Assembly (NCBI GenBank): GCA_905178155.1
Contig: CAJINV010000011.1
Span: 3,009,144 to 3,073,143, forward strand
From: Amoebophrya sp. A120
Lineage: Eukaryota > Protista > Dinoflagellata
DNA: 64,000 bases
Direction: 5' to 3'
The notes under the pieces were generated by a model. The model was given only the letters and a program-made list of their open reading frames with translations, was not told where the DNA came from and made no database searches. The position numbers and the translations under genes are program-made. Shown in pieces: positions 1-32,400 of the stretch (positions are counted from its first letter, which is position 1; each line of letters starts with the position of its first letter).

Positions 1-1590
1 CGGGCACCGCAGGCGGGCGCGTTTGCGTTGCAGTCTAAAGGAGAGAGGAACCGCGCTCACGCAGATGCGAAGCGGCATCTCATACAGCCTGCCTCCGCAG
101 GCACTCCGCACGAGCGCGCTCCGCGCTCCTGTCTATTTTTGTCGCGACGAGCCATCCAGAAGATGCGCGCTTCTGATTCTTGCATAACATAGACCCAGTT
201 GGAGTCTTTTTTTCCGCGCCTCGAGCAGAGCATGCGAATTTTTTAAGTATGTTCTTGAGTATGTATTTCGTGTAGCCTTAACTTACCCAATACCCGAGCC
301 CCCCCCCGTTGCGGACGCGAGCCCGCCCATATTCAAAGCGCGCCGCCCGCCGCGCAGGCCCCCGGCCACCCGTCCCGTTTCGCTTTGCAGGCGTACGGGG
401 CCGCTCCAGATGGCCACTGCCCCCGACAACAGCACCCCCCGGGCGCCCGCGATGGGCTCCCGCGCCAACCTTTACTATCCCAGGGCCTGCTGTCGTCGAG
501 GCTCGCAATTTCGCTAAACAACGCAGCCACTATGCTCATGAGCATAGGTCTGACCCACATGATCAGGCTTGGGGGCCTGCAAACCCTATCGGACCGCAGG
601 CCCGCAATACCCGAGTGCGGGGCGCTCGTCTTGGGCTTGGTCGCCCTGCTCTTGAGCAGTTTGGGCACCTTGGCGACACTCGCGCGGCCCCAGATCGGCC
701 CCGGCCCTTACTCCCTTCCTCCGGGAAGCGCTGCGCGCGGGCGCGCTTTGGCCGCCGGCCTAGCTGCGGGCCCGCTGCGAAATTTTGCCGCCTCGCCCAG
801 CCCGTTCCTCGAGCTTGGTGGCCCGCGCGGCTTCGGCCCCGGGCGCGCCGCCCTGCTGCTCCGGCAGCGAGAGGACCCGCGCAACTATCAGCCTCGTCGG
901 TTTCTTCCCTGCGCCTTCACGCCGGCTTCTATTCACATCCATAAGCGCAAGGATGCGCCAATCGCCCGTATCTGGGACACGGCGAAGCACTGAACGATTT
1001 TACTCACTTCGACGCGCGCCACCTTTCCAAGGAGAGCCTGAACAACGTCACCCACTTCCAGCTTGGACCTCTGCCTGACGGAGCTTGTTTCATCTCTATG
1101 GCAGATATGAACAAGTGAAGAAAGTGCTACGCGGCTGAGTCAAAATTTTCCATCTTTCTGTGGAATTCGGTTCTGAGACTGGTTCTGCAAAGAGAAAGAA
1201 ATTTAGTGGCGGAAAGAGCCGACAACAGGCGAAGCGGCTACTGGTCATATTTGTGTATTGAGGTCTACAACAAAAACTGCACAAAACGCAGCGCTTTGCG
1301 ACATTGACGACGATCCAAAAATACAATGACTGCTCTTGGGAACTAGAGGTAATGGTTGCAAAGCATGCGGTTCTTTGTATAATCAGATGATAAACTTGGA
1401 GAAGCAGAAGTCGAAGTAGAGAGGTTTCAGCTTATTACAGCAAGAGGCACAGCACAAAAATGTCGTCAAAGGATAAGTTCGAGGTGTACTACTTACGGCA
1501 AGGAACCGGACTTACTGAGACGTGATTCTGGCGAGTAAGTGAAACAGAAAATCTTCAGTCTCCAAAAGCCACACTAACATCTCCGATCCC

Positions 1591-2582
1591 CTAGTCGCAA
1601 AAGCAGCACTTCTTCGGGGCTCCCCAGCTGGCGTCGACGGTCCAGAGGAAGCGGTTGGGCGGTCCGATCTGCTTTTCCGTGACCTCGTAGCCGTGGCGCA
1701 AAAAGTACGCCACCACGTCGCGCTTGCACTTTTCGCGGTTTTGCACAAAGGCCTCGATCTCGTGGTCTTCCAGCTCCAGCTCGCCGCACAGGTTCCGGTA
1801 GCTCTGCAGGTCCGACTCCGGCTGGATCCGCGCGGAGCACTGCCCGCGTTCCTTGGCGTAGCGGATCCGCAGGTTCATCAGATCCACCATGTCCTTAAAG
1901 GCCCGCACGCGTGCCTGGTACGCCCGGCAGGCCTTCTGCGGATCTTCGGTGGTCACGATACCGCTACTCCCGCGGTGCTGCTGGTGCACCACGTTAACCT
2001 GCGGCTGCGGCATTTGCTGTTGACCCCCGACGTTGATGTGCATGGTCATCGGCAAAGGCTGCTGCTGCTGCTGTGCCTGGTGTTGCTGCACGCCCTGGTG
2101 CTGTGGCACCATGTTGTTGTTCATCATCTGCGGTTGCATGCATGGCTGTTGCTGCATCGGAAACGGCTGTTGCGCGCCGTACGGCGGCTGCATGCCCTGC
2201 TGGTACATCTGCTGGTGCTGCGGCGGCTATCAAAAAGAAAAGAAGGTAGCATGATCCTCGCGTATTTGTGCTGGTGCAAAACACAACAAGACAAATGAAA
2301 ACAAAACTCCCTTGCATAGACATGCACAGCAGAACGCTGCCGCTGGGCTTTGCTGGGCCCATCCATGACAAGGATTGTGATCATCTACTTGTTTTTGCAC
2401 CACAAGTTGAACGATATGCTACTTATGCTACCTACATCTCTGTCTCGTAGCGTCGGGATCTGATTCATCGCCGGGTTCATCGCGGGCGGGTTCGCATTCG
2501 GATCCGTCTGATAGGGAAACGCGCTCGTGGCCGGAGGCGCAGTTCCCCCGTAGTACGGGTTGCCCGTCGCACTCGGGTACAT
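1591..2582 (-). CDS. Gln/Pro-rich hypothetical protein, probably 2 exons, C-terminal KKCCFCD
   Basis: ORF 1591..2208 (205 aa) preceded by a pyrimidine-rich ...TTTGATAG acceptor near 2229. Probable upstream exon MYPSATGNPYYGG... in ORF 2385..2645. Start and donor uncertain. Confidence 0.6.
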
Positions 2583-3526
2583 TTCCCTGGACACGCCGCT
2601 GGGTGTTCTTGTAGTTCTTGGCTCGGTCGACAGCTTCGGAAGCAACTTTCTTTGCTTTTCAAAATCTCGCTCACTCAGAGTTGAGTACTGAATGAAAGTC
2701 TAACAAGTTGTGTACAGAGTTTCAGAATCTACTGATGAAAGTCTAAGTTGTAGGTGCAAATTGTAAAAGTAATGATAACTACGTCGTGTGAGAAAATGTA
2801 CGCGAATATGCCCGACAAAGCACACTCTAGAGGGACAACACTATCACTATTTTCAAAACTGAAGAATGTTTTCGAATCCGTTTCACACTGTTCCAGTGAC
2901 TTTTTCGTCACAGAAACGATGAGGCACAGTCATAACACTACGTCAAAGAAATCACAATCTTCGGATGGAAGTGGAACGAATGGTGAAGTTTGCACATGGA
3001 GAACGCTTGTGTCTGTTTCGTGCTCCTTCTCGGCACATGCGAGCTAGAAATATCGAGGATCCGCAGACGTGGTGCAAGACACGCACACTGCTTGTATTGT
3101 GTCCAAGTGCGCTTGGCTTTAAAGCGGGGCTGCCACGCTAAAATACTCGAACTAAGAAAACGCTGCTTCTTGACAAACACGGCTCGTCACACTGCCCACA
3201 GCTGCAAGGCTCCTACATATGATCTTGATCTTCATCTTCGTTCAGTGGCAAATGTTTGGCCGCCTTACATGAACAATTGTCAACTCTATCTTTGAGTGGT
3301 CCGCCGTGTCGACGTGTGTCCCAAGATCAAAAACGGACAACAATACGCGCACATTTGGATTAACTTTGTGCCTTCTTGGAAACATCAATGTGCTTGCGTG
3401 CTGCAACGAACACCTACAGCTCCCCGAGATCGAGAAATTGGCGTGAATATTAGATATGGTTAAAGATGGGAATCCATGCATCAGAAAGTCACATTAAACC
3501 GCTCCTCATCTTCCACGATTCCCACC

Positions 3527-6500
3527 TCACAACCCCCCAGCACTTCCTCGCCCCCGGAGCAACTCTTGCAGCGGCGTGCCGAAGAATTCTCCCACATGCG
3601 AGCCATTATGGATTGCAAAAATATCTGGGTCTGGAAAAATGCAACGTCTGTCATGCATATTTTGCATGACCCATGAAGTCTGTGATGCATGCTCTAGCAT
3701 CACATATTTTGTAAATGCTTTCTGATGCCCATACAGCATGAGAAATTCCCTCTCCGCGTAGCGAAAACTGGACCCCTTTTGCTGTTCATGCAAAACAGAT
3801 TTTTTGGGAATCCAAAAACAGCACCACAATCTGTCGAAGATATTTCTATACTTTTCCCTCTATCTCTCTACCCCTACTGCCACCTCTACTCTCTAATTTT
3901 GTACTTCGAACAACTTACGTAAACCGAAAGCAAAGTGCCTGGCTTAAGTTACCACTGCTGCTATTTTTCGTACCCTGTGGTCGTTGCCTGTAGCAAGCGA
4001 CGAGCTTCATTAACATTGGCATGCTCGCGGGTCGTGCTGTGAAACCACTCGTAAAAATCAAAAAAAAAAACTTTCTCTGCAAAACAAAAACGGAGCTGCG
4101 CGCGCACTAGAGATCGAAAAGGCAGCATATGCGTGTTTTTACATCCGGACCAGGCGAGACGTGCAAACGATCATACCGCGCTAAGTGCAACGGCGTTGCG
4201 AAAGCGCAAGAGATCGAAAAAAGTTAGGTCAGAAGAGATCGAGCACGTGTTTTCCATCGGGACAAGGCGCGACGTACGTCTGAGAAAGATACAAACGAGT
4301 GTTAGCCCGGGGAGTTAATGACTACTACTAAAAAACGGTCGTCGATGGTCCTAGAAAACGAACCTTTTTACATCGGGACAAGGCGAGACGTATAGATTGA
4401 GAATACCGTGCTAAGTGCAAAACAGCACGAGTGAGAGATCTTGCAAAGGCCACCAGAGATCGAAAAAAGTTAGATTAGAAGCGGGACCAGGCGAGACGTG
4501 TGTCTGAAAAAAAGTTCTACCAAACAGCTAAGAACGAGCTTTAGTGTGGGGAGATATATAATAATTGTCACTACGAAAACGCCCACATCTCATGTGACTC
4601 GCTCTTTTTGAAAAAAACACAAACTCAAAAACCACTTGAACCAAGGCTCCACTACTTCTCGCGAAACGCCGTTAATGGGGTGAAAAAAAACTCGTCGCCG
4701 GGGGAAGGTGCGTTGATCAGGCTACTTTTATAGCATTTTCGGAGTTTTCGGGAATTCTTGCTCTTGCTCAGTCCGCTGCTTCCCGCCCTGCGTCGATGCG
4801 AAGCCCAGCTTCATAACACAGGCGGCCGTATTCAATTCCCCGCCGCGCAGCACTCGTGCTGTAGGATTCTATTGGGATTTGCACTTTTTGCGGCATTGCT
4901 GTCGTTGAAGTTCCGAAATAGCTCTGTGACCAGTTTACTCCTACGTATTCCCGGTCCTTCGTTGTGTCGTTCAGTGTGCAGCCAGGGTAGAAGTCGCGCC
5001 GGAGTGGCTCCACTTCCTGGCCCCGCGGTACTAGTCGCGTCATCCCGAGGTCGTCGATGTACCGCTTGTGGAAGAGGATCCGGCCGGTGTAGGTGCGATC
5101 AATGCGGCCGCCCATTTCCTGCACTATCCCGAAGCAGTTCGAGATCTCCACCATGAGCGGCGGGCCCATCGGTCCCCCGCCAGTTTGTCGAACTACCCTG
5201 CCCATCACCCTGCACACGGAAAACTTCGCGTCGATCTTCGGGCTGCGTGTGATGACGTCCGCGCGAAGGTGCCAGCACTCTTTTCCGTCTGGCTTTTTCT
5301 TGAGAAATCTGATCCCCCTTCTTGGTTTCGCGATGCTGCGCGCCATCATCGACTTCGTCTGTATCTTGTCGTTGTAAAGTTTCCCGATCCGCTTCCGCGC
5401 GTGCTCTGCCTTGTGCATTTCCACCCGCTTCAGGTGCGGACTAGTCTTCTCAACCGCAAAACACCGAACGCCGCATCTCGTATAGTCGTTTGCCCGTCGT
5501 TCTACCAGTTCAATTGCTTCTGCAACGTTGCACCGCGTGAAGAAGTCCTTCAGGTCCCCTGTCTCGAAGAGTAGGACCCAATTGGCCTTTTCGTCTGGTG
5601 TGAGTGCGTTCCAGACGCGGTTGCAATCCTCCAGAGCTTCTATCACCTCCTGCTGTGTTGCGAAGAGAAACTTGCTGCACTCCGGTGCCATGACTCTACG
5701 GATCACGCGCGCGACCTGCCGGAACCAATCCCGGTAAACATGCTTGAAGTAGGACGTGATTGGTCTGTATGCTACTGCAGCCCCGGGTAGCTCTTCCAAT
5801 GCAAAGTCCCTCTTGCCGTCTTGTTCCATCGCTTTGAACATTTTGGCCGTCAGCATTATTTTCAGGAACGGCCAGCGGTGGTTGCGTTTGCAGAAGATGT
5901 GGCTCAAAGGTTTTCCGCCCCTCCGCCTGTCCTTGTTTTCGTCAGAGAGCGCAAAAAACTCTTTGCTTTCGTCGTAGTTTTCTAGCCCTTTCCAACCGCG
6001 GATCATTTCGTAATCGTTTTCGATGTGCTTGAGGAGGCAGTGCGCGATTACGTTGTGGCATGCGAAGAAGATAGACCGCGACTTGTCAACCTCCCCCACG
6101 TACAGATGCTGAGCTAATTGCCTGGCGACGTCCGTAATGTCATCCTGCGTGGCATAAGACTTCTTCTTTTCCCATGCTGTGGACCGGGCAGAAACTAACA
6201 CATCCGCCACCTCGTTCCCTGTCTTCAGCACCCCGCTCTGCTTTTGCCACTGTTTCCGCGCTTTCGTAACGCACTGCACTACTTCTCTTCGGGTCGGTGC
6301 GAGCGTGCCAATGCGATTCCAGTTCCCTATCTCTCTGCCCCCGATGCTAACAAGCGAGAAACCAGACGTGGCGGGCTCGCAGACAGTGTGTCCGTCGATC
6401 GTGGTCAGGTCGGGATACTCGTTCTTCAGGAATTCGCGCGCGCAGTGCATGCCTTGCCCTTGTCGTAGTCTGTGCGCGGCCTGGTCGTGGAAGTGCTTCA

Positions 6501-8012
6501 AGTTTGTTCCTAGTACATCCAGCACCTTCCTCGCCCTAGTTCTCTTGACTCGTAGTACCCGTACTGGCCCGCGTAGTTCCTGGTCCACCGTGAGCGAAAG
6601 GGCGAAGTATCTCCGCACGCTATTGAGGAAGGCCGGGCTGAGATCGTTGACTTTGATTGTTGTTACAACTACTTGCCTCCCCTGTGCGTAGTGCTGGAAG
6701 TTGCTGTTGAAGATGTAGCACTTGCCGGGGTCAAGAAGCTGCTTCGCTTTTTGCTGGAAGGCCTGCGCAGTTCGTGGCTGCATCGCGCGTATCTTGTCCT
6801 GGGTTGCCTTACTGGTCCCCAACCTCTTCGACATAGCCAACATGATGCGCGTGTGCTCATTGGTGGTCTGGTCCAGGTTCCTGGCCTGCAGGAGTTGGAA
6901 AGCGTGTCGCGGTGCTGCGCTGGAGACGCCGTTGCTGCCGGTCCTTGTAGACTTGAACGCCTTGTGCTCCCGCCGTGTGATCACATACGTCTTCCGGATG
7001 TTTGCGACCTTCTTGCAGAATTCGCCCGCTATCTTCCCCTGCGAGTTTGCGCTTGCGTTAAACCAGTTGATGAGCACCAGCTCTGCGGCGTCTAGGTTCG
7101 TCCGATTCTTGACTGGTGAAACCATGAGGCGGAAAACGACCCAGCTGCAAACGCCATCTCGATGGAAGGAACCCTGCAGGAATCCCTTTCGTGTTTCATC
7201 TGCAACGCCGGCCCAGTGTGTTTCCGTGCGCTCGTACTTCGTGCAAATGGATCTCCCTACATACAGCTTGCGCATCACAAGTTACCAACCTCCAGACCCA
7301 GACATTTTTACATTTGATACCCATCCGGCATTTGCAAATCCAACAGTCCCTCCAACTTCTTCACAGCGGCCGGCAGTTTTTCAGGCTCGTCGAACGACCC
7401 TCCCAAAGGACAGCCCTCTAAGTGCAGCGTCGTCAGCGTCCTCGGAAGCTCGGTTGGAAAGTCCTCGGCAACGAGGGGGCAGCGATCTACGCGGAGACTC
7501 GCCAGTTTATTTTCCGGGAGGGCTGGAAGAATTTGTAGGTTCGTGTCGTGTACCGACAGCTGTTCTAGCTCTTTCAAGTTCGCCAGACTCGGCAACGCTT
7601 TGAACTGATTCTTGCTGGAGGACGAGTTTTGTGCGTCTACCCCTCCGAGAAAGAGGCACTTCAGGCCGGTCAAGCGCGACACACTTTCGGGCAACGCGAG
7701 AAGACCGCACCCACTCAAATCCAGCTCCTGCAACGTATGGAACTCAAGCGGAAAGTCAGGAAGGTTCCCTTCCGGCGACGGCGTCAGGGGAAAGAGATCG
7801 CAGAGAATCAACGTGGTTGGGAGATGAAGATGATCTGCACTACCACTATTGCTGTCCCATTCCTTTCCCGCAGATCCTTCAGCTCCGAGCGGGCCCGTGA
7901 GCATGCTGCCGCTGCGAGCTCGGGCTACTAGCGGCTGCCAAGCCAAGAGTTCCGCACTTCTGGCGGGACTATGGCCGCTCGCATTTTCGACGGCGGGGCT
8001 TGCGGTCGTCAT
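3527..8012 (-). CDS. Leucine-rich repeat protein, two exons (8012-7321 and 3602-3527) split by a 3.7-kb element
   Basis: LRR motifs LQELDLSGCGLLALPESVSRLTGLKCLFL and LKELEQLSVHDTNLQILP. Removing 3603-7320 joins LLDLQMPDG to SHVGEFFGTPLQELLRG in frame. Confidence 0.8.
3830..7271 (-). mobile_element. Penelope-like retroelement (N-terminal endonuclease type), apparently 5'-truncated
   Basis: Contains the RT ORF plus ~0.9 kb of repeat-rich 3' sequence. Flanked by GCACCACAA (3821-3829) and GCATCACAA (7272-7280). Confidence 0.8.
4110..4570. repeat. Imperfect tandem direct repeats (~230 bp x2) downstream of the RT ORF
   Basis: Core GGAC(C/A)AGGCG(A/C)GACGT four times (~4147, 4260, 4376, 4484). ATACCG(C/T)GCTAAGTGCAA twice and AGAGATCGAAAAAAGTTAG twice. 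Confidence 0.75.
4768..7275 (-). CDS. Partial GIY-YIG endonuclease + Penelope-type reverse transcriptase
   Basis: ~835 codons without a stop. N-terminal LYVGRS..ERTETH..AELVLINWFNASAN is GIY-YIG-like but lacks the first GIY motif. RT motifs: VDKS, YRPITS, TGDLKDFFT (A), QTGGGPMGPPLMVEISN (B), RYIDDL (C), EYVGV (E). Confidence 0.85.
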   Translation of the reverse strand: MRKLYVGRSICTKYERTETHWAGVADETRKGFLQGSFHRDGVCSWVVFRLMVSPVKNRTNLDAAELVLINWFNASANSQGKIAGEFCKKVANIRKTYVITRREHKAFKSTRTGSNGVSSAAPRHAFQLLQARNLDQTTNEHTRIMLAMSKRLGTSKATQDKIRAMQPRTAQAFQQKAKQLLDPGKCYIFNSNFQHYAQGRQVVVTTIKVNDLSPAFLNSVRRYFALSLTVDQELRGPVRVLRVKRTRARKVLDVLGTNLKHFHDQAAHRLRQGQGMHCAREFLKNEYPDLTTIDGHTVCEPATSGFSLVSIGGREIGNWNRIGTLAPTRREVVQCVTKARKQWQKQSGVLKTGNEVADVLVSARSTAWEKKKSYATQDDITDVARQLAQHLYVGEVDKSRSIFFACHNVIAHCLLKHIENDYEMIRGWKGLENYDESKEFFALSDENKDRRRGGKPLSHIFCKRNHRWPFLKIMLTAKMFKAMEQDGKRDFALEELPGAAVAYRPITSYFKHVYRDWFRQVARVIRRVMAPECSKFLFATQQEVIEALEDCNRVWNALTPDEKANWVLLFETGDLKDFFTRCNVAEAIELVERRANDYTRCGVRCFAVEKTSPHLKRVEMHKAEHARKRIGKLYNDKIQTKSMMARSIAKPRRGIRFLKKKPDGKECWHLRADVITRSPKIDAKFSVCRVMGRVVRQTGGGPMGPPLMVEISNCFGIVQEMGGRIDRTYTGRILFHKRYIDDLGMTRLVPRGQEVEPLRRDFYPGCTLNDTTKDREYVGVNWSQSYFGTSTTAMPQKVQIPIESYSTSAARRGIEYGRLCYEAGLRIDAGREAAD

Positions 8013-8443
8013 GATTGACGGAGTTTTAGTTTTTCGAGGTCGACGCTATACCTAGACGGTGAGAAAATGAAAATGGCTTTTGTCGAGAGGAAAATATCTG
8101 TATATAACGAGCAACGTCATAAAGAGCTATTCGCAAAGGTTCGGCTTCGTGACTGACTCAGAGAGGAGCATTTTGTGTCACATTCGAATTTCATCTAGAC
8201 GAGGTCACGCATCTTCACATTTCGTGCTGCATGTTGCGGTGCTAGAATAAGGATCCTATCTCGAATAAAACTCTTTGAAGCACGAATCGCGGACCAGATC
8301 AAGAAGATCTCGCAAGGAACGCTAAGAAAATCTGATCTTCGTTCACTGACTTCGACTCCTTCTTCTACCAAATAGAAATAATTAGACGAGTTCGAATTTC
8401 CATCCGACTCACAATGTGCCTATACCTAGTAGACGCAATGAGT

Positions 8444-9496
8444 TCATCCATCGTCTTGGTCCACCCGCAGCAAAGTCATGGTCATCGAGGGGAACCAGAA
8501 GGTTTCCGCCCCACTCTCTGGGTCCCGGTCCACCCAACACAGCTGCTCGCGCACGAAAAACCGCAACACCTTTTCCACGCGACTGGGGGACCACAGCTGA
8601 AACCTCTCGTCGCGCAGAAACGCGTCCCGCGGCAGCACCCCGGCTTCACGCCCTGCAAATTCCAGCACCAAGTTTTGGTCCGTGTCGAGCTCCTCGGGCA
8701 CGGACGACACCACGCGGACGTCATTCGCCAACCGCTTCACGGTCACGCCGGAACCGAAGGACGTTTCTAGCAGCTCCACCGCCATGAGAACATCCTTTTC
8801 CGTTATTTCAGTGGTTGCGGGACGAGGTCCTTCTTGCGACGCCGAACTTGGTTGTGAGAGCTGTTCTTCTGCAGCTGCTACATGTGAAGATGCTCTTGTT
8901 TGCGAAGAAGTTGTAGTAGAACAAGCCCCCGTGTTGCTCTCAATAGCCGCGTTGTTCCTCCCGCCGTTTAAAATTTGCAGCAGCTCAGTGAGCAGTAGGA
9001 GTCCCCCGTTTTGTTTTCGCGTGGTCAAACAGGTGGTCATCACCCGGACGGCCAAATCCGCGTAAAAGGCTCGTTGCGAGCGCGCTCGCCTCGCCACGGC
9101 CTCTTGCTCTTTTTTCTCTAGTACTTGCGCGCTCGAGCTGCCGCGACTTGCCGTTGTTCCGAGAAGTTTTTGCAGAAAAGCCCCCACGCCGCGGCGCTGC
9201 CGCTGTTCGTCATCAGCTTCATCTTCGCCGGGCCAGCTGCTAAACGCGAGCGGGTCCACGCCGATTGCGAGGCACATGTCGGTAAAATCTTTCCGGAGCT
9301 TCGGATCCGTGTTGATTTTGTCGCGGTACGTACTCGCGAACGCGGAAAGCTGCGTACGAAACGTTTTGCACAACTCCTTCGCCGCGTCCACCTTCATGGC
9401 AAGAATTTCCTCACCCAGCCCGGCCATCTGTAGTTTCCGCTCGCGCTCCTTTAACAAGGCGGCCTTGCCACCCGGGCCCACCATCCCACGCCGCAT
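8444..9496 (-). CDS. SNF8: ESCRT-II subunit Vps22/SNF8 (EAP30 family)
   Basis: MRRGMVG start, FRTQLSAFASTYRDKINTDPKLRKDFTDMCLAIGVDPLA, FYADLAVRV..CLTTRKQNGGL, SVPEELDTDQ, WVD..FWFPS. Confidence 0.9.
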   Translation of the reverse strand: MRRGMVGPGGKAALLKERERKLQMAGLGEEILAMKVDAAKELCKTFRTQLSAFASTYRDKINTDPKLRKDFTDMCLAIGVDPLAFSSWPGEDEADDEQRQRRGVGAFLQKLLGTTASRGSSSAQVLEKKEQEAVARRARSQRAFYADLAVRVMTTCLTTRKQNGGLLLLTELLQILNGGRNNAAIESNTGACSTTTSSQTRASSHVAAAEEQLSQPSSASQEGPRPATTEITEKDVLMAVELLETSFGSGVTVKRLANDVRVVSSVPEELDTDQNLVLEFAGREAGVLPRDAFLRDERFQLWSPSRVEKVLRFFVREQLCWVDRDPESGAETFWFPSMTMTLLRVDQDDG

Positions 9497-10144
9497 CTTT
9501 ACCTTGTTGGTGTTCTTTTTTCGCCACGGGCGGTATCAAAAAGTCGTGGAGGAGTAGCGTTTATCTTTTTCCTATTGAGCTTTATTTCGTTCTACATTTC
9601 ACAATTTCATGAGAGATGTTGACAGGAGACGAATATAGTACAGAGCTTGCATTCCTTCGAGACGAGAGCGAAGAGGATACTTTAGAAGAAAGTTGCTTTG
9701 GCTTCGTGGTTGTGATTTCGTTTCAATGATACATAGAACTGTAAAGAAGCTCTCCATCAGTTGTAAGTGACGCAGCTTGATCTTCGTCTTTATCTATCAT
9801 GATCCAGGCTAATTACACGAGCTACTTGTTCGAGCATCATGATCCGAGCAGATGTGAGAGGAAAGCGTGCTTCACAAATGTTCTGTCGGTTTTTTTCCAC
9901 AGGGATCGTCTTAGCAACCACACTTCACAGACGCGGGAGGAACATAGGTACATCGGCACCGTACACGATGAAGAACATCCACCGCTCTAAGCCCGCTTTG
10001 ACTTACTGTCACACTAAGTCACTTTCCGTGGACATCAAAGCAGTGCTGCCACATCCTTGACGAAATGGTACTTAAAGAACGAAGGTCCTGGGGGTGCTCA
10101 GAAGTTTAAGTTTTGTCATACAACAACATTGCTTCTTTTTGTCG

Positions 10145-11098
10145 TCAGTCGAAAGGCTCTTTTCCCGCTTGCAAATTCAGGAGCACGACGCGCGTCCATT
10201 TCTGCAGCGTTTCCAAGCAGTCACGGTAATCGGTTATCGGGCCGTTGTACGGGTCGCTAATGTCGTCCGAATTATCCGCGAGCAGAAACACCTTCGCCCG
10301 GCCGTCGAACGCCGCCGGACCGAGCAGGGCGAGCAGCGCCTCCCGGTGCTGGCGGGTCATGCAGAAGTAGTAGGTCTGGCTGACATTTCCTGGCTCGACG
10401 AGCAGGTGTGGCGGCGAGCTTTTGAGGTCCGTGGGCCGGTGTTTTTCCAGGTCCGGGTTCGGGATGGGAAAACCCGCGATCTCTCCCAGCGCCTGCAGCG
10501 CCGTCGGGTGCGGGACGCTTTCTCGCAGGCTGGTGCCCCGGGAGCACAGGTGCCAATGTTTCGTTTTTGCTCGGACGGCTTCATCACTGGATGCCACAAG
10601 GAACGCCTTCGCCACGTACTCGGCCATAAAAGAGCGGCACGTGTTGCCCGTGCAGACAAAGCACACCCGCAGTGCCGGCGGTGGGGCACCAGTCGTGTCA
10701 TTGCCGCTGCTGGAGGCTGCCATTTTTGTTTTCGTCGAGCGAAAGGTAGAAGAAAAATTCGGCTCTTCTTTTGACCCTGCATGGTCGGTGGCAGAGGAAG
10801 TTGCAGTATTTTTAGTAGCACCTTTATTTTTTGTATCAAAACCGGCGCGGCGGTGGGCACTGCCGTCAGCTGCTGGAATTACGCCGGTACTGCGCCACCT
10901 GTGTTCCTGCACTAGCTCGCCTGGCTCGAGGCCGACTGCCGATGAGGCTCTCTCTTTGGCAGAAAGGTGCTGTTTCAGTCGGAGTTCAAAGTCTTTCACC
11001 TTCGTCTCTGAGTAGGTGTCGACCACAGCACCCTCCGCGCCTTCAACAGTGCGCCTCTCAATACTCACCCCTCGCTCTACGCTCACGCGCAGGAGCAT
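10145..11098 (-). CDS. Low-molecular-weight protein tyrosine/arginine phosphatase family
   Basis: P-loop VCFVCTGNTCRSFMAE and acid loop DISDPY. Confidence 0.9.
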   Translation of the reverse strand: MLLRVSVERGVSIERRTVEGAEGAVVDTYSETKVKDFELRLKQHLSAKERASSAVGLEPGELVQEHRWRSTGVIPAADGSAHRRAGFDTKNKGATKNTATSSATDHAGSKEEPNFSSTFRSTKTKMAASSSGNDTTGAPPPALRVCFVCTGNTCRSFMAEYVAKAFLVASSDEAVRAKTKHWHLCSRGTSLRESVPHPTALQALGEIAGFPIPNPDLEKHRPTDLKSSPPHLLVEPGNVSQTYYFCMTRQHREALLALLGPAAFDGRAKVFLLADNSDDISDPYNGPITDYRDCLETLQKWTRVVLLNLQAGKEPFD

Positions 11099-11626
11099 TA
11101 TTGTTTTGTAAGGTCTTTAGACAAAGATAGTATGGAGGAAATGGCCGACGTGTGGTGAGCTAGTGTTGGCGTCGGCTTGGCGTAGCAAGCAAAAGGAATA
11201 CAGACATTTAGATTGGAAACCAGAATAATTCTTTAGAGACAGGGGTTCGGAGTCCTGCAAAAAGGGTTTTGGCACAACGACCTTGTGCGAACTTTACTCA
11301 AGATGTTGAAGGAACTTGAAAGACAATCTCTCATCCCTTTCAACCTTCGCGTATCAATCTTCTTCTTCAGTACAGAATGCTACTTCGTGCTTGCGTTCTG
11401 TACACCACCAGTAGCTCAAGTTCTTGCTCTGTGTCATTAGATTTATCTTTGCCAGAAAATAAAAACGACTGAGATTTGTGTTTTGTTCTGCAACAACTAT
11501 GCAAGAAGAAAACCGACGGCTCTAGTGCGCTCCTCCTCTTGCTGCCCTCTCGTCGTCCTTGAGGCTTTTCTTTCTATCTTGCATGGGCTGCGCGTCGAAA
11601 AAAACTACTCCCGAAGAAACAATTCT

Positions 11627-14600
11627 TCAGGCCGCAGCACCCACCCCGAATACGTACTCCAACCGCCGGCGCTCCAGGTCGAGCTGCTGCGCGGCCCGGC
11701 GCCGGTCCTCCTCCGTTTCTTCCGTGCGGAAAAAGGCCTGGTTCTGGGAGAGCAGGAGATCCAGCACGAAGGGGCTTGCAGCCTTCTCCAGCCCGTATTT
11801 GACGCGCAGTTGGTCCAGGACGGTGGCCACCTCCAAGTGAAAGCCGCTGGAGTCCGTCTCGTGGCCGCCCGTGTTCAGACAGTCCAACAGGGATCCGCAC
11901 TGCGCCAACTGCTTCAAAATGCTGCGCGGAAACGCGGTGAGTGGTCCCAGCATGCCGTTCAGCACGCAGGACAAAATCAGCTTGATCCGCCGGCTCGCCA
12001 AACTGGGGCGCCGCGACGCGGTCCACTGCCGGTTCACGGAAATGATGTCCAGGGCGGCGGCCAGAAGCATGAAGAAGGGGGCGTGCGATTTTGCGGCCGC
12101 AGTGGTAGCGCCAGACACAGTCGCCAAATGGTCACTGTCTGGGGATTTTGCCATGACCTCCTGCTTCAACATCTCAGAAGATGACGCAACGCATCCATTT
12201 CCGCCTGTAGGCCGCGGCATAGTCCCGCCACCCGATCCATTCTTTGAAATTGATGCAGTTCTTGCTATCCTCTCTTCTGTACCTATGCTACACGACGGCG
12301 AGGGAAACAAGTAGAGTGCCGACAGAGCGGCGGTGTGCGCCCACTCGTCTTCGTCGTCTTTTGCCTGAACGCCCAGTCGCGCCTTCCTTGCCACCTCGCG
12401 GACAAACTCGCGGTCGACCGCGGTGGGCAGGTGCAGCAGGTCCAAAAACCCCAAAGCGTAAAGAAACTGCCGGTAAAAAGTCAGTCGGGTTGATGCGCTC
12501 GTGGCTGTCGGCTTGCTAGTAGAAGTTCTTGCAGATCCACTTTGTTCGGGCCGAAGATGAGCTGGGCTAAAATGTCCAAACCACTCCTTATCCTGGTACC
12601 CCACTTCGCGCAACACCCGTTCCGCCAGTTCTTCATCCCGATACCGCAATTTCGCACAAGACCACAACAACGCAACCTTCTGCACCGAGGTCAGCGCGTG
12701 CCACTTCTTTTGTTCCAAAGGGGGCACATGCACATCAAGAGCGATACTCTCGTCATGATCCGAAACGCGCCGTTCCGGCTCGTCTTCCTGGCGGTCGTGT
12801 AGTACTTCGTCCACCAAAACCTTCATAAAATCATCATCCTCCAGATACTGGTCTGCGAAGCTGAAGGCCACGCTGACAATCTGCCGCCCGTCGAACGTCC
12901 GAATGGTCTCCTGGGTCCGCTTCGCCAGCATGAACATCCAAAACTCGTCTGTTGGCAACACGCGCCGCCCCAGCGCTGTGATCATGCGACTGCAGTCCGC
13001 GGCGGATAGCGCGTCCACGTGGTCGCACACATAATCCGAGTACAAACCGACGAACTGCCCCCCCAGCCGCGTCGCGGCGCGGCCGCGAGCCTGGAACGCG
13101 TTAATGTGGCTTCGCGGCGGACCGCAGTTCACATTGTCGTTGCTCTTCAGCATGTTGCCAAACAGCCGCTTATTCGGAACATTGGCCTGAAGACCGTCGA
13201 TCGATCTACCCGGAAAGCCCGGCGCGCACGCCGGCGCTGCGAGGTTGTCTGCGAAGTAAGCGAAGGCCTCGAGCACAGGCACCATGCCCGCACGAATGAA
13301 AGGCAGGTTGGCCTTGGACACGCAGAGCTTGACGTATTTCACCAGCATCTCGTCCCGCGTTTCGTGCTCCCGGGGCTGCACGGCGCGGGCGCCTTCCAGA
13401 TACTCCGCTGTGAGGAAGGCTACGCGCGCTTCGTCTTCATTTTCAAAATTTTTCCCCGCTGTCCGGCTTGTCGTACCCTCTTTCTCGTCTGAAATGTTGA
13501 GAAAATACGTTCGTTCCCCTCGGACCTGGTGCTGCGCGACCACCCGCAGGTCCCGTTCCAGGTTTTCCTCCCCTTTCCACAAGTGTTCGCTGTAGGAAAG
13601 GGTCTGCGTCTGCATAGATTCCGAGAGGAAGGGGACAACGAGCGGTACCGCGGTGGTGGTGGGCAGGAGCCGCAGCACTGCGTAGGCGTCGCGCTCCGTG
13701 CGGAGGGCTGCGTGCGTCAGGTTATTATTTCCTTTGGTGAGAAAAGTGCCAATCACGTCGCTCGCTGCCAGGTTTTCCACCGGGAACTGCGGGTTGATGG
13801 AGTAGTCCGGGGACGGGGCGGGAGGGTAGGAAATAGATGGCGCGCAACTTCGTTTCGCTGTTGTCGCACCGTGTACAACTTCATGACCTGTTCCAGCTCC
13901 AGCTTCGTTCGCTCGACTTACCACCCCAGAGAGCGAAGCGTCTGCACTTCCTTCCCCTGTCTCGTCTGTCGAGGGCGAAAACGAGAAGTCTTGCTGCGCC
14001 AAAAAGTAGTGCCGGTGGCGCGTCAGCACCAGGTCGAAGAGCGTGTGGGCCTTTCGATGTTGATGTTGTGTAGTTGCGGGAATGGATTGTAGTTCCACTG
14101 CATCTCCTGCACCATAATTATTCATCCCATGGAGATCGTATTCATCCAAAACGCGCTCCAGCAGGTGCAGAAATACTGGTGTCGATAGGCGACCGATGGC
14201 GTCAGGACTTAGTGTTGGAGCAGGTGTCTTTGGTCGTTCTATTGGTTGTTGTGGCTTCTTTGCTAGCACCACATCCACTTCGCGGTCCTTCTCTGTCGTG
14301 CATCCTCCAGTTCTTTCCGGCTCTTGTTGTCCCTGCTCTACTCCCGCTTGAGAGATCGATAAAACATCTCCTGGCGATGCTAGTACAACTTCTCTGCCTG
14401 ACGAGCTGCAGCTCAACATGCCCCCGATGGCTGCAAGGACGCTGTCCTGGTGCTCGTCTCGCAGCAGCTCCAAAGTTCTGCGGTCATGCTCCGAACAGAG
14501 CGCGGCGACGGCGGGGGTCAGTTGTCGGACCACGGGACGAGCAGAGGCTGCTGAACTACCGGCTCCGCTTTCGGCAGCAGCTCTGTTGCGGATCATAAAC

Positions 14601-24290: not shown

Positions 24291-25735
24291 CTAGCAGCAG
24301 GCGACCACAGGGGCCGGGGTCGCGAGCTTTGAAGCATCCACCGCGCCAGTGACGTGAGTGTCGGTGGCAACGTCTCCGGGCGGCGGCGAACTTTCATCAC
24401 CCGCTGGTTCGGGTCCGGGAGCCGGCGGACTGCTGTCACCCCCCGCAGGTCCGGGTCCGGGAGCCGGCGTACTGCTTTCACCCCCCGCAGGTCCGGGTCC
24501 GGGAGCCGGCGTACTGCTTTCACCACCCGCAGGTCCGGGAGCCGGCGTACCGATCCCCGTTCCACCACCCACAGGTCCGGGAGCCGTCTCGCATTTCCCG
24601 CAGTAACGACTGATCCCCGTGACTTTGTTGTTCGACGGTAATGTCGTCAATTTCAGGTCGTTTGGGCCCGCAATGCCGACGCTGTTATCAAGTGTAAAAA
24701 TGTCTGGGTCTGGAAGAATTCATGTTTGTCATGCTTGTCTGGCATGGCTCTTCAATCTGTCATGCACGTTACCCAAGAGCTCCGCTTTTCTGTGATGCAG
24801 AAGCGCAGTTTGTCATGCAGAATTGGCAACACCTAGGAGCTCAGAAACTTGTCATGCTGAGCCAGCATCTGTAGCCTCATCATGAGACGCCACCCAGCAT
24901 CACAAGTTTCCAGACCCAGACATTTTTACATTTGATAGCTGTTCTTGAGGAACATTTCACAAGGGCGAATGATGCTGCTCTTGTAGTACTGCGCGATTCC
25001 CACACACTCATCATTGTCTTCACACTCCTGCTTGCACAGCTCGCGATCTTTGTCGCCTCCTTCTCCATCTGCCAGGTGTGTCAGCATGTCTTGTAGGGGT
25101 GTGCTGCCCGCGTTCGTGTCGCCCGTGTCCTCCACCCAACACCCCGCGTCCTCTGCCGCCGCGTCCAATGTCTTCCAAGTGCCGCAATCCTCTGCCCCGC
25201 ACTCAGGCAACCACTTTTCCCGCATCGCTTCGCAGCCGCAAAACGTTTCTGGATCGCAATAGCGGCTGATACCGAACAACGGTATCGATAGTTGCAAGTT
25301 CGAAAGCTGAATGGCATTCGCCGATCCATCGATTTTAGGTTCGAAATCTTCGGCGCCACGCATCAGAGCACACGCGTCGCGCTGGGCGCGGATCCGCTGC
25401 ACGATACCGAGGCAGCCGGGGGTGTCCGCGCAGTCTTGCTCACACTTGTTACGACTTCTGATTAACGCCCCGCCCAGCACTGCCTGGTTTTTCAACCCAG
25501 AGATGGTGCACTGCTTCTGCTCGCCAATTTGCTCGATTTGTTTAAACACGCCACAGTCCTTGCCCATTTCGCAAAGCGGCAGCCATTCGTCGCTTTTGTT
25601 CTCGCACGTGTCCCCGTCATCTTGTTCCCCTGCCCGGCGCAAAACGACCTGAAAGCCCTGCGTCAGGTTGTTTTCACTGGTGTAAAAGTCGAGTAGCACC
25701 GCCGGAGCTACCCGCCGCAACGTGGACAGCGACAT
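24291..25735 (-). CDS. Cys-rich protein with two PAN/apple-like modules and Pro/Gly repeats, split by an introner
   Basis: CEQDCADTPGCLGIVQ and CKQECEDNDECVGIAQ. Removing 24686-24937 plus one TSD joins FLKNS to VGIAGPNDLKLTTLPSNNK in frame. Termini uncertain. Confidence 0.65.
24400..24590 (-). repeat. Coding tandem repeat (~42-bp unit, APGPGPAGGESSTP)
   Basis: About 4-5 copies of CCCGCAGGTCCGGG..CCGGGAGCCGGCGTAC. Confidence 0.85.
24686..24937. mobile_element. Family-A TIR introner (252 bp)
   Basis: ~30-bp TIR TATCAA(G/A)TGTAAAAATGTCTGGGTCTGGAA; TSD GCTGT; frame restored on removal. Confidence 0.95.
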
Positions 25736-26467: not shown

Positions 26468-29400
26468 TTATTCCACAAACAGATTTGTGAAAATTCCCGT
26501 CGCCATGGCGTGTTTTCCGGGTACGGTCGGCGACGTCTGTAGACACTCCGCGTATCAAATGTAAAAATGTCTGGGTCTGGAAATTTGTGATGCATGTCAG
26601 TGAAACGAAAGCACACTGCAATGCGCCGCCAGGCATGACAAATTTACCCTTTCCCTTGGCTCCCTGTTGCGTATTCCGCATGACAAACAGCGTTTTTGCA
26701 TGACAGATAAGAGGAGCTCTTGCTGGCCACGCAATACAGAGCTCCGTGTCATGCCCGACTAGCATGACAAATCCCGCCTTCTTCCAGACCCAGACATTTT
26801 TGCATTTGATACCGCGGCCTCGGAAGCTATCCGCGCAAACACGTGCCTCCACGGTAACTCGTAGGGCTCGTTTCGCAGGCACCGCGGCAGCTTCTCGTGC
26901 ATGTTCGCCTTCGTGAGGTATGGCACAGCACCAGCAGTGTCCGCGGCTTTTTTGGCTGCATTAGGGGCAGCTGCTGCATCTGCGGTAGTTGTAGTTTCGC
27001 CAGCAACCCCCGGAGGGGTATCAAGTGTAAAAATGTCTGGGTATGGAAGACGCCCAGAAAAGCGCCGCAAATGCATGCTTTTTATTTGCGTGAGATTTGC
27101 GCGAGATTTGCGCGAGATTTCCAAAAATATTAGGAATATTGCCAAATCCGTCGAAAGTTCCTGAATATTCACAATATTGCCAAGCCGGGCAGCTTCTTGA
27201 GGCGAGAACCCCCCCCGTGAATATTTTCAAGTATATTCGCCAGCAAATATTCCTGAATATTAACAATATTGCCAGCTCCCTCGGGCAGCTTTTTGAGGCG
27301 AGAACCCCCTCCGTGAATATTTTCAAGTATATCCGCCAATAAATATTCCTGAATATTAATAATATTGCCAACTTGGGCAGCTTTTTGAGGCGAGGACCCC
27401 CTCCGTGAAGTATATTCGCCAATAAATATTCCTGAATATTAATAATATTGCCAACTCGGGCAGCTTTTGGAGGCGAGAACCCCCTCCGTGAATATTTTCA
27501 AGTATATTCGCCAATAAATATTCGCGAATATTAGTAATATTGCCAAATCGGGCAGCTTTTTAAGGCGCGAACCCCCTCCGTGAATATTTTCAAGTATATT
27601 CGCCAATAAATATTCGCGAATATTAATAATATTGCCAAATCGGGCAGCTTTTTGAGGCGAGAACCCCCTCCGTGAATGTTTTCAAGTATGTATATTCGCC
27701 AATAAATATTCCTGAATATCAACAATATTGCCAACTCGGGCAGCTTTTTGAGGCGAGAACCCCCTCCGTGAATATTTTCGAGCATATTCGCCAATAAATG
27801 TCCCTGAATATCAATGATCTTGCCAACCCGGGCAGCTTCTTGAGGCGAGAACCCCCTCCGTGAATATTTTCAAGCATCTTCGCCAATAGATATTCCTGAA
27901 TATTAATAATATTGCCAAATCGGGCAGCTTCTTAAGGCGAGAACCCCCTCCGTGAATATTTTCAAGTATATTCGCCAATGAATATTCCTGGACATTAATA
28001 ATATTGCCAACTCGGGCAGCTTTTTGAGGCGAGAACCCCCTCCGTGAATATTTTCAAGTATATTCGCCAATAAATATTCCTGAATATTAATAATATTGCC
28101 AAATCGGGCAGCTTTTTGAGGCGAGAACCCCCTCCGTGAATATTTTCAAGTATATTCGCCAATGAATATTCCTGAATATTAATAATATTGCCAACTCGGG
28201 CAGCTTTTTGAGGCGAGAACCCCCTCCGTGAATATTTTCAAGTATATTCGCCAATAAATATTCCTGAATATTAATAATATTGCCAAATCGGGCAGCTTTT
28301 TGAGGCGAGAACCCCCTCCGTGAATATTTTCAAGTATATTCGCCAATAAATATTCCTGAATATTAATAATATTGCCAAATCGGGCAGCTTTTTGAGGCGA
28401 GAACCCCCTCCGTGAATATTTTCAAGTATATTCGCCAATAAATATTCCTGAATATTAATAATATTGCCAACTCGGGCAGCTTTTTGAGGCGAGAACCCCC
28501 TCCGTGAATATTTTCAAGTATATTCGCCAATAAATATTCCTGAATATTAATAATATTGCCAAATCGGGCAGCTTTTTGAGGCGAGAACCCCCTCCGTGAA
28601 TATTTTCAAGTATATTCGCCAATAAATATTCCTGAATATTAATAATATTGCCAACTCGGGCAGCTTTTTGAGGCGAGAACCCCCTCCGTGAATATTTTCA
28701 AGTATATTCGCCAATAAATATTCCTGAATATTAATAATATTGCCAACTCGGGCAGCTTTTTGAGGCGAAAACCCCCTCCGTGAATATTTTCAAGTATATT
28801 CGCCAATAAATATTCCTGAATATTAATAATATTGCCAACTCGGGCAGCTTTTTGAGGCGAGAACCCCCTCCGTGAATATTTTCAAGTATATTCGCCAATA
28901 AATATTCCTGAATATTAATAATATTGCCAACTCGGGCAGCTTTTTGAGGCGAAAACCCCCTCCGTGAATATTTTCAAGTATATTCGCCAATAAATATTCC
29001 TGAATATTAATAATATTGCCAACTCGGGCAGCTTTTTGAGGCGAAAACCCCCTCCGTGAATATTTTCAAGTATATTCGCCAATAAATATTCCTGAATATT
29101 AATAATATTGCCAACTCGGGCAGCTTTTTGAGGCGAAAACCCCCTCCGTGAATATTTTCAAGTATATTCGCCAATAAATATTCCTGAATATTAATAATAT
29201 TGCCAACTCGGGCAGCTTTTTGAGGCGAAAACCCCCTCCGTGAATATTTTCAAGTATATTCGCCAATAAATATTCCTGAATATTAATAATATTGCCAACT
29301 CGGGCAGCTTTTTGAGGCGAAAACCCCCTCCGTGAATATTTTCAAGTATATTCGCCAATAAATATTCCTGAATATTAATAATATTGCCAACTCGGGCAGC

Positions 29401-32400
29401 TTTTTGAGGCGAAAACCCCCTCCGTGAATGTTTCCAACTCAAGCACATTCGCGAACATACTCTCAGACGGACGAGGCGGGGCGGTGTAACGCGCTAAATT
29501 TGTTCTATTTTCCCGCTAAATAGTTTGGCCCCAAAGACAGGAAACTGCCTAAGAGGCAAAGCAGAAAAAGCCCGCGGGAAAACAACCGCCGCCCCCGCTC
29601 TGCCAAGCGCCGCAGAGCGGGCGCCGGGGCCTTCGCTCGGCCCGGGCCGTGCGGCGCGGCCACCCGGCCATCACGCCCGGGGAGCTTGGAACCTTGCTGC
29701 GGACCTTGCTTGCCGGGAGCGGCCGGGCAACTTCAAGTCAACGCCCGCCGACCTACCCAAGCTTGCGCGCGGAGCTTACGTCCCGCGCTCGACGGAAGAA
29801 CACCTTGCCCTTCGCCCCCGGAGAGTCAGCTGGACCTTTCACACGCGATCGGATCGCGGGTGGAAGGTGCGGCTGAAATCCACTTGGAATGCTTCTAAAT
29901 ATGTGTCTAAATATGTGTCTAAATATGTTTCTAAATATCGTTTTAAATGTGTTCTAAATTCCGACCGGGAATCTTCTAAATTTGGTCCGCGGATCCAAAT
30001 CCAGTGGGATTTCCCTGCTGTCGGATTTAGCAGCACATTTAGCGCGATATTTAGCGACATACTTAGCGACATATTTAGCGGGGAAGTTAGCGCACTTTTA
30101 GCGGCATTTTAGGCGTCCGGTTAGCCAAATTTCTGCGGAAAATCACGAAGATTTATCCGTCCGATTTAGCTTCCCCGAATTCCGGATCCGGGGGTCCGGC
30201 AGCGCGGCGAACTCGCCCGGCGGGCGGTGGCGCGGGGCCGCGAAGCCGGCAGGGGCGCGGGCCGGCCTTTGCAAAATTTAAAAATTCGGACGGAAACCAC
30301 TCCGAATTTTTAAATTTTAAATCGCACGAGGGCGGCGCCACGGGGGGCACCGCCGAAAAAGGAGCGCAAAGGGCCTCGCGCGAAGCCGCGGAACGCCCCC
30401 GGCGCCCGGCCGCCCCACGCACGAGGCGGGCGCAGGCCGGGCAAAGGCGCGCGGCCCATCAATGTGGGGCCGAAAAGCTGCGCGGCCTGCGGAAAAATTT
30501 AGCCAGATTATAGCGCGAATTTAGTCAGCACCCCCGCCCCGGGCCGTCCGCCTGAATACTCGAAAATATTCACGGAGGGGGTTCTCGCCTCAAAAAGCTG
30601 CCCGACGGATTTGGCAACATTCCTACTATTTTCTAAATCTCGCGCAAATCTCGCGCAAATCTCACGTAAATAAAAGCGACGCACTTCCGGCGCTTTTCTG
30701 GGCGTCTTCCATACCCAGACACTTTTACACTTGATAAGGGGTACCGTTGGACAACTCGTCTTCCTTTTTGGAGGTCGTCATCATCTGCAAAGAGTCTTCC
30801 TGCAGGCGCAAACAGGCCTGGTTCGCCCGCTGCACGAACCGCAGCCCGTTGGCGATTTCCCACATCGCATTTTCGTCTTTCTTCAAATTGGCGCAAAATT
30901 TGTTTCCCTTGTCTCCCTCCTTGGCCTGCGCCGCGGCGGAATCCTGGGCCCGCAGGTTCAGCCCCAAGCCACGGGCCTGGTCCACCAGGTCGCGCATGAC
31001 GTTGCGCGCGGCCCGGATCGCGCGGCTGACCCGCGTGAGCCGCTTGCCGGGTTTCGCGAGTCGCGGGTCCTCGCCGAGCCACTGGCGGTGCGAGATCGGC
31101 CGCAGATACCGACTGCCCTGGATGTAGGAGACCATGTTGTGCTGCCACGTGTTATCCGTGATTCCCGGAAGTCCGGTCCGCAGGTCCCCCGGGTAGTGCC
31201 GACGCACATGCAACGTCGGGTTCGCAGCTTTCGTCTCCGAGGAGTCCGCACTTTCGCCTCCTTGTTCCTCCTCGTCCCCCGAGTTCATTTCTGGTATATC
31301 CACCGCCGTTTTCTGTCCCTTCAAACCGGATTCCCTGGCGAAGGGGACTTCCTTGTCGGCGCCACCGCCCGTCTCTAGCTTGTAGTTCACGTTTTTGGCA
31401 ATCGCCTGCTGCTCCCCCGCCACCGCCGGCAGCAGGAACTCCCGCGTGCCCGCGCGGTTCTGCGCGCCCGGGGACTCAACCGCACTGTTCTTCAGCACGC
31501 ACACGCATCCGGTCACGCCCCCGTGGGTGCATATGGATTGCAAATATGTCTGGGTCTGGAAGAGTGCCAGACTTGTCATGCAGGTTTCCCATGACCCATG
31601 AGGTCTGGTACGTAGGACATAGCATGACAGATTCTGTGAGCATTCTATCATGCCTATCCTGCATGAGAAACTGCCTCTCGATTAGGTCCAAAGTGTAAGT
31701 GGACAGCTGCTTTTGGTAATCATACATGCAACACAGACTTTATACACTATTCAGATTTAGCAAGACAAGTTGCTTCGTTCCAGACCCAGACATATTTGCA
31801 CTTGATAGTGCAGGCAGGCTCGTCAAACCCCTTCGTGCTCCACGTCTGGCACGGCCGAAACTCGTCGCGACTCTTGATCGGCGCCGGGTCGTTGGTCTGT
31901 ATCAATTGTTACTAGTGGACTTTCTCAATAAAGGACCATTTGGCCTAAGTGATTCCTAAGTGTAGCCCCCTCGTGTTTCGCTCCAAAAGCCGATTGATAT
32001 CTGGACTCTGTTCTGATTATGTTGGGTTGCCATACGTAGACCGATGGCATTTTGATGCGTTCTGCACATTTCCATCGGTCTTCTTTCCAACATGCCAACC
32101 AGCATAGACTAGACCCAACACAAATGAACCTCGCGACAACGGCTCGGCGCAAAATCGCGCCTACGAATCAGGGAAATAGCGGGGCAAAGAACGAAAAGAG
32201 ACGCCGCGCGATGAGCTTCTTTGCGCGGCGGTTGCACTGGAGAAGAGCTGGGCCGTTTGCTACTCTTGCTTTTGGGAAATTTGCAAAAGCCCCAGCCCCC
32301 CCTTGCGGGAGAAAGCACAAAATGGCTGCCCACGTAGTGCCGTCGTGTGGCAGCCAGCGCTTACACGTTGGCACTACGGCCGCAGCCATTTTGTTCTTTC

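Follow-up and report, generated by a model that had tools for sequence, protein, structure and literature searches.

Does a reverse transcriptase that lies inside an intron drive the spread of that intron, or is it a passenger? This question is raised by a leucine-rich repeat (LRR) gene in a 64,000-nt stretch of the dinoflagellate Amoebophrya sp. A120 (assembly GCA_905178155.1, contig CAJINV010000011.1, positions 3,009,144 to 3,073,143 of the forward strand; hereafter the window, whose own positions are used throughout). The LRR gene is interrupted by an introner, an element with terminal inverted repeats (TIRs) and a short target-site duplication (TSD), and within this introner lies a long open reading frame (ORF) with GIY-YIG endonuclease (EN) and reverse transcriptase (RT) features. 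An earlier note, made from the sequence alone, had offered two readings: a 5'-truncated Penelope-like element (PLE) with an N-terminal endonuclease nested in the introner, perhaps targeting introner motifs, or a composite intron whose excised RNA encodes an RT able to mobilise introners. The anatomy, the RT and nuclease identity and the truncation put forward in the first reading stood up to analysis. We consider it likely that the insert is a 5'-truncated PLE that arrived in the introner a single time, is likely dead, and has survived because the introner is still spliced.

An introner split by an insert with a 9-bp duplication

A degenerate TIR pattern identified 11 left and 11 right arms in the window, which pair without crossing into 11 members of one introner family (family A). 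Nine of these are 252-276 bp long and two are about 3.7 kb, and all are flanked by a 5-bp duplication, which is exact in seven and carries one mismatch in four. In the host introner, the left TIR lies at 3607-3635 (plus strand) and the right TIR at 7291-7319 (minus strand), so the TIRs reported at 3607 and 7319 are genuine ends of this family. The 5-bp TSD reported with them is present but imperfect: its left copy, GCCAT (3602-3606), which stays in the spliced RNA, and its right copy, CCCAT (7320-7324), agree at four of five positions, placing the host introner among the four one-mismatch members. Terminal repeats, 3-5-nt direct repeats and membership in a repeated family, the features by which Amoebophrya introner elements are recognised, are all found here. 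A120 introners have been described as bounded by inverted repeats of TAT, seven nucleotides and at least three A (PMC7789003), and the host introner resembles them in its TAT + 7 nt + AAA start, its 3-5-nt boundary repeats, its non-canonical splice sites and its setting among co-oriented genes; in the window the genes share the minus-strand orientation, and short inverted-repeat elements are abundant. It differs from them in carrying a 3.4-kb retroelement, whereas the available text of that paper presents introners as lacking transposase genes inside them and says nothing of Penelope, and its supplement text gave no match for Penelope, PLE or LINE (long interspersed nuclear element).

Alignment with the family resolves the host introner into two parts. 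Positions 3607-3829 match the family as far as its last subterminal motif, with the left body (3607-3820) aligning to the 252-276-bp members, and positions 7272-7319 match from this motif to the end. Together the halves amount to 262 bp, a normal family-A size, and overlap only in the 9-bp motif. Because the halves align with the family and overlap in this motif, the insert can be delimited as 3830-7271 (minus strand; 3,442 bp), 39 bp from the donor-side end of the introner. The flanking copies are GCACCACAA at 3821-3829, at the 3' end of the retroelement, and GCATCACAA at 7272-7280, at its truncated 5' end, the latter being the introner's last subterminal motif. They agree at eight of nine positions, cannot be extended and likely represent a target-site duplication; the motif is therefore duplicated around the insert as the earlier note had it, in copies that are not identical. 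The nested anatomy, an introner split by an insert with a 9-bp duplication, is real. A candidate decayed TIR at 3830-3853, which might have closed a complete left introner, was rejected, as 16 of 336 control windows scored equally. Neither blastn nor tblastn found a second piece of the insert within the window.

The 3' non-coding region of the insert (3830-4767, minus strand) has no poly(A) tail and no hammerhead core. It contains four degenerate 27-nt repeats at 4136, 4249, 4365 and 4473, spaced 108-116 nt apart; no tandem array was detected by Tandem Repeats Finder. Self-comparison of the insert revealed no pseudo-long-terminal-repeat or partial tandem structure in this truncated copy.

The insert encodes a GIY-YIG-RT protein truncated within the nuclease

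The insert carries an ORF of 837 codons from stop to stop (4768-7281, minus strand), in agreement with the roughly 835 uninterrupted codons claimed before. Its in-frame ATG at 7275 indeed falls inside the duplicated introner motif, and is an accident of the duplication. Pfam detected neither an RT nor a GIY-YIG domain in the ORF, so the proposed check with a GIY-YIG hidden Markov model failed on the ORF itself and gave matches below the cut-off in two relatives (E 0.0007 and 0.003); a single-sequence search against the PDB also returned nothing. An exhaustive search of 1.84 billion representatives yielded 20 relatives at E up to 0.001, six of them from Amoebophrya proteomes. A profile of 21 relatives matched solved RTs, with the best E value of 1e-7 for DRT2 and values of 0.04-0.09 for TERT. 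With the AlphaFold model of the ORF (mean predicted local distance difference test score of 70, below 50 for residues 1-140), Foldseek ranks 1-15 were all telomerase RTs (best E 4.5e-8), as expected for PLE RTs. The nearest clusters in a protein language-model atlas were unnamed or carried GIY-YIG or RVT_1 annotation on a minority of members. In the RT core (5050-5556, minus strand), which runs from motif A through motif B to YIDD, the catalytic D576 and YIDD (741-744) are intact, and motif B reads GPMGPP, with Ser found in 11 of the 13 other aligned sequences covering it. The full set of RT motifs claimed for the ORF thus holds for motif A and YIDD and fails at motif B.

The nuclease remnant (7036-7272, minus strand) retains Y7, G9, R18, H22, E67 and N79, and these six residues are invariant in all ten aligned N-termini, the ORF included. 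The first GIY strand and the upstream extension are absent from the ORF. Its nearest relative, P0002 (45% identical over 528 columns), has about 120 more N-terminal residues and continues upstream through the first nuclease strand, which argues that the insert copy was cut inside the GIY-YIG domain.

A full-length relative is available in L001, in which positions 1457-11825 of a metagenome contig hold an apparently complete 10.4-kb element of the same PLE family. It comprises an ORF of 245 codons, an upstream ORF of 797 codons (coiled-coil-like, with no Pfam match) and a GIY-YIG-RT ORF of 1,224 codons, together with 972-bp direct repeats at 99% identity and a short flanking duplication; no terminal inverted repeats were found among the listed pairs. 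This layout is ordinary PLE architecture. The database protein P0007 misses the nuclease of this element. No relatives of P0001 were found in metagenome or viral contigs, and none of P0002 in viral contigs. When the nuclease region of L001 was modelled, Foldseek ranks 1-7 were I-TevI and UvrC at E values of only 0.3-1.2, and alignment to I-TevI with VIA-align gave a Z score of 8.5 and a root-mean-square deviation of 3.4 over 88 aligned residues; the top ten matches were all GIY-YIG proteins by their description or, for some, presumably so. The six invariant residues and this I-TevI-like model in a relative confirm the partial N-terminal GIY-YIG domain that had been proposed.

A probable Chlamys-like lineage of Penelope-like elements

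The order of the domains, with a GIY-YIG endonuclease N-terminal to the RT in the same ORF, is that of the Naiad and Chlamys elements, although the nuclease is truncated in the insert copy. Between EN and RT, a CxC motif is present in the nine full-length relatives that cover the region and reads C-A-R in the insert (6436-6444, minus strand). A DK pair precedes the RT core in all 15 aligned sequences covering it, as DKS in the ORF. The spacing from motif A to motif B, compared within the family, is 126 aa in the ORF and 106-126 aa across 14 sequences; in ordinary RTs it is roughly 70-90 aa. No hammerhead was found in Rfam searches at E up to 5, and the CTGANGA...GAAA core is absent from both the 3' region of the insert and the L001 repeat. 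Inside the nuclease core, where a CCHH motif was sought, nine sequences share no conserved cysteines and three of them have no cysteine at all. A CxxC...CxC motif lies 100-150 aa upstream of the nuclease in five of the six relatives with a long N-terminus, a region lost from the insert.

By the criteria of Craig et al. 2021 (PMC8557442), these features suggest that the ORF family is Chlamys-like: CxC (in the relatives), DK, an apparently long A-B spacing, no hammerhead, and an N-terminal nuclease that lacks CCHH. Chlamys elements share the N-terminal GIY-YIG with R, H, E and N, the CxC linker (here in the relatives), DK without a conserved third residue, and 5' truncation, as well as the direct repeats and upstream ORF seen here in the full-length relative. 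In contrast to Chlamys, for which the available text mentions no dinoflagellate or other alveolate, the ORF is hosted by an alveolate; its target is a transposon motif, rather than (CA)n or (C)n; its family is too diverged for Pfam RVT_1; and the five long relatives carry the CxxC...CxC motif, whereas Chlamys is described without an upstream zinc-finger linker. Naiad is similar in domain order, CxC, an apparently long finger insertion and an upstream cysteine motif, and differs in having CCHH in its nuclease and DKA, as opposed to no conserved nuclease cysteines in the family and DKS in the ORF (PMC8557442).

A tree of 19 rows, restricted to family members, without an outgroup and with long branches including one unnamed long-branch row, grouped the ORF with the Amoebophrya relatives P0002, P0005 and P0003 (support 94/90); P0007, P0008, P0014, P0022 and P0023 were left out as duplicates or too short. 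No named PLE, TERT or Chlamys sequence occurs among the 20 relatives, and alignment-based and P0013-based searches added nothing.

Apparent removal of the introner with its insert from LRR transcripts

The host LRR gene lies on the minus strand, with an upstream exon at 7321-8045 (first ATG at 8012) and a last exon at 3153-3602 that holds 24 codons to a stop at 3527, followed by a likely 3' untranslated region. Of 11 listed runs, eight were covered by the analysis of contigs and reads. Four were examined for the predicted junction of 7321 with 3602, and in the contigs of two of them, X3 and X4, it was seen, skipping 3,718 nt (3603-7320, minus strand) at a depth of 13.8 and 10.6, that of the LRR-exon contig. 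The intron so removed reads GT...GG at one of five equivalent cuts, in which the GT donor at 7320 is created by the mismatched base of the introner TSD, and its ends pair at about -44 kcal/mol. X3 and X4 come from one sample, and their RNA status is inferred, none of the runs listed as containing the sequence being recorded as RNA: they are taken as RNA because they contain two other intron-like joints, one of them GT-AG. They also hold intron-retaining contigs from 3577 onward (depth 6-7), and X5, from the same sample, has the same contig break points. Over the ORF, the probable-RNA contigs are short pieces at a depth of about 1-3.5, which were not used as evidence of expression.

After splicing, the LRR frame continues for the 24 codons to its stop, compared with three codons in the unspliced form. 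Downstream of the junction, the other two frames likewise meet no stop for about 37 and 41 codons, so that the restored frame to which the earlier note had pointed does not discriminate and is no evidence of splicing. Taken together, the whole 3,718-nt unit appears to be spliced from LRR RNA, for which the evidence is good, not final.

Copy number in the DNA of the strain

In the DNA run X1, depth is 42-43 over the flanks of the insert, 46-60 over its interior and 150,000-450,000 in the TIR bins; matches were counted from 80% identity, and depths added up in this way give copy number only loosely. The small excesses over the interior reflect short matches, for example at 5881/6076, which suggests a diverged relative elsewhere. 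The insert lies on one unbranched 3,566-nt contig (3753-7318) at a depth of 46 and without differences, and both insert junctions are spanned. No second copy of the insert at 80% identity or above, and likewise no second TIR-RT-TIR composite with a different TSD of the kind the earlier note had looked to, was found in the X1 contigs, which can drop rare variants. A second close copy would be expected to branch the contig; there is therefore no second composite and no visible parent.

Origin and fate of the insert

The nested structure is probably an ordinary, one-off event. A full-length parent, organised like L001 with an upstream ORF, an EN-RT ORF of about 1,200 aa and 972-bp direct repeats, would have nicked the introner and, once, primed reverse transcription from its own 3' end (target-primed reverse transcription). 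Synthesis would have stopped inside the GIY-YIG domain, with loss of the promoter, the N-terminal extension and the first nuclease strand, and repair would have duplicated 9 bp. The intact TIRs may still pair and define the splice, allowing a 14-fold larger intron to be tolerated, and the insert would likely have survived because this TIR-bounded intron is still spliced from the LRR mRNA. The copy would have been dead on arrival and be decaying, its ORF remaining open on account of its youth (divergence of about 1-3%).

Decay is suggested by the conserved positions of the protein. Among 47 columns conserved at 80% or more, the ORF deviates at three, C282R (the second Cys of CxC), K478T (an otherwise invariant Lys) and S707P (the motif-B Ser), each one base from the consensus; the closest Amoebophrya relatives deviate at 0-2 such columns and more distant ones at up to 23%. 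These radical changes hint at a decaying protein. In neutral simulations (1,000 trials, substitutions only, no indels), the ORF remained open in 64%, 43%, 15%, 7% and 1% of cases at 0.5, 1, 2, 3 and 5% divergence, respectively. An open ORF survives low neutral divergence, so youth suffices to explain it and selection is not needed.

Several observations weigh against a chance arrival of a now decaying PLE. The duplication falls exactly on an introner motif, an event of about 2% that favours site preference over random landing. No close parent is present in X1, although a young copy needs one; the parent must have disappeared by loss or segregation or been removed by filtering. The three deviations in 47 columns do not exceed the rate of several relatives (0-23%). 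The 3602/7321 joint has a shorter side of 26 nt, below the advised 31, and was seen in a single sample that can only be guessed to be RNA; the two RNA runs available as raw reads, X9 and X10, have 0 and 2 reads on the stretch, too few to bear on the joint. The tree is confined to family members, and placement among PLEs draws on motifs and structural similarity.

The first of these observations leads to the alternative that survives best, in which the PLE lineage prefers GCATSACAA and takes shelter in the thousands of introners of the genome, which remove themselves, through a preference of its nuclease or, speculatively, through pairing of the 3' end of its RNA with the nicked motif. With at most one mismatch, GCATSACAA matches 47 of 2,279 nine-base windows (2.1%) of the nine short introners, 6 of 254 of the host introner and 38 of about 59,700 unmasked window positions elsewhere, an approximately 30-fold higher density in introners, and the duplication is exactly in register with it. 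Pairing of the RNA end would explain the single mismatch between the two copies as the RNA's own base, but an ordinary point mutation would do so just as well. Chlamys and Naiad elements are known to prefer certain targets, such as microsatellites and 28S ribosomal DNA (PMC8557442, in the part available), and several members of the family occur in Amoebophrya proteomes, as the six of 20 relatives show. On the other hand, this is a single case, and the motif was chosen with hindsight; selection removes insertions from exons, so that survivors are enriched in introns regardless; introners make up 17% of the A120 assembly (PMC7789003, in the part available); the X1 contigs hold no second copy; and the flanking duplication of L001 is AT-rich and unrelated to GCATSACAA, though L001 is a distant element. 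We regard such targeting as unlikely. Equally doubtful is the larger claim that an undescribed alveolate PLE lineage with an N-terminal nuclease targets the introner subterminal motif and parasitises a transposon that removes itself from mRNA, which would make it the first introner-specialised retroelement.

A domesticated or otherwise functional RT, kept by selection and translated from retained or excised intron through the motif ATG, is very improbable. It would fit the 837-codon open frame of a single copy whose parent is not seen, the intact D576 and YIDD, and a GC content at third codon positions of 0.69, near the 0.63-0.66 of host genes. However, the ORF starts within the nuclease fold, precisely at the boundary formed by truncation and duplication; it departs from the consensus at CxC, K478 and the motif-B Ser; a young copy would have an open ORF in any case; and the exact ORF is absent from the protein collection in which the neighbouring EAP30 protein is present.

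The earlier note's second reading, a composite mobile intron that moves whole as TIR-RT-TIR or whose excised RNA supplies an RT mobilising introners, is very unlikely, being contradicted in the DNA contigs of the strain by an insert that is single-copy against a massively repeated TIR family. The unit is apparently excised as one intron with its ORF in sense, and one X1 contig joins 7321 to 3604 through the TSD at a depth of 82. But that joint has a 31-nt side and was called at 80% stringency in a huge repeat family; it is probably a head-to-tail introner pair elsewhere, and a circular excision product would look alike. Ten of the 11 family members in the window lack the insert, the others being short TIR/TSD elements without ORFs; the nuclease is truncated and conserved residues are altered; and L001, a free-standing relative, carries direct repeats but lacks TIRs. 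It also counts against the composite that TIRs with a TSD of fixed length (5 bp) typify cut-and-paste transposases. In its favour, the transposase of A120-type introners is unknown (PMC7789003, as far as the available text goes), and a multi-copy TIR-flanked introner family with retroelement ORFs, family 38, has been published for A120 together with non-LTR (long terminal repeat) introner families (Gozashti et al. 2025, PMC12130899, in the part available). Family 38 is alike in that its TIR-flanked introners contain retroelement ORFs, and differs in having several near-identical copies with Copia/Gypsy-like ORFs, whereas the present insert is single-copy and PLE-like. In the same dataset, one haptophyte introner family has its best match to a Chlamys element, and no Amoebophrya row for Penelope, PLE, Chlamys, Naiad or GIY occurs in the 12 of its 14 supplementary files that were searched.

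Other introners and neighbouring genes in the window

The second 3.7-kb member of family A lies at 27019-30736 (3,718 bp), with an exact AGGGG TSD and 108-nt inverted ends; it is filled by a 92-bp repeat, present about 24 times, together with a GC-rich segment, and has no long ORF. Large cargo in family-A introners is thus not unique to the LRR gene. The family-A introners at 24686-24937 and 34314-34569 are 93-97% identical in opposite orientation and represent a recent duplication or transposition. Two further introners, at 32857-33160 and 35535-35835, also in opposite orientation, belong to a different TIR family with TATGGAACTGTCAG-like ends and carry GCATSACAA as their subterminal motif, as family A does, which hints that one protein may bind introners of both families.

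Upstream of the LRR gene (8045-8420 and 8444-9535), probable-RNA contigs join an EAP30/Vps36-family gene to it. The joint removes a GT-AG intron of 374 nt, which is bounded by a 10-nt direct repeat and lies just past the EAP30 stop, and reflects a bicistronic or read-through transcript or overlapping untranslated regions. In the gene downstream of the LRR gene, a 227-nt non-canonical intron (2222-2450) is spliced in X3 and X4.

Implications for Penelope-like elements and introners

According to the available text of a 2025 paper (PMC12477816), PLEs had gone unreported in the TSAR supergroup before the brown alga Ectocarpus. We found no report of Penelope in Amoebophrya, dinoflagellates or alveolates in a literature search that subscription papers mostly lay outside. 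The element lineage therefore looks new for alveolates, and divergence beyond the reach of Pfam may be the reason that the family was missed. Even on the plain reading, a single arrival of a truncated copy, PLEs, the sister group of telomerase, would be extended to alveolates; motif targeting, if true, would raise the importance of the locus much further.

In summary, the locus is a warning that an RT ORF found within a TIR introner can be a passenger rather than a driver. It also offers a natural experiment on how Amoebophrya splices its non-canonical introns: an introner that has grown from 262 to 3,713 bp is still apparently removed, which points to its paired ends, and not its body or length, as the splice signal.

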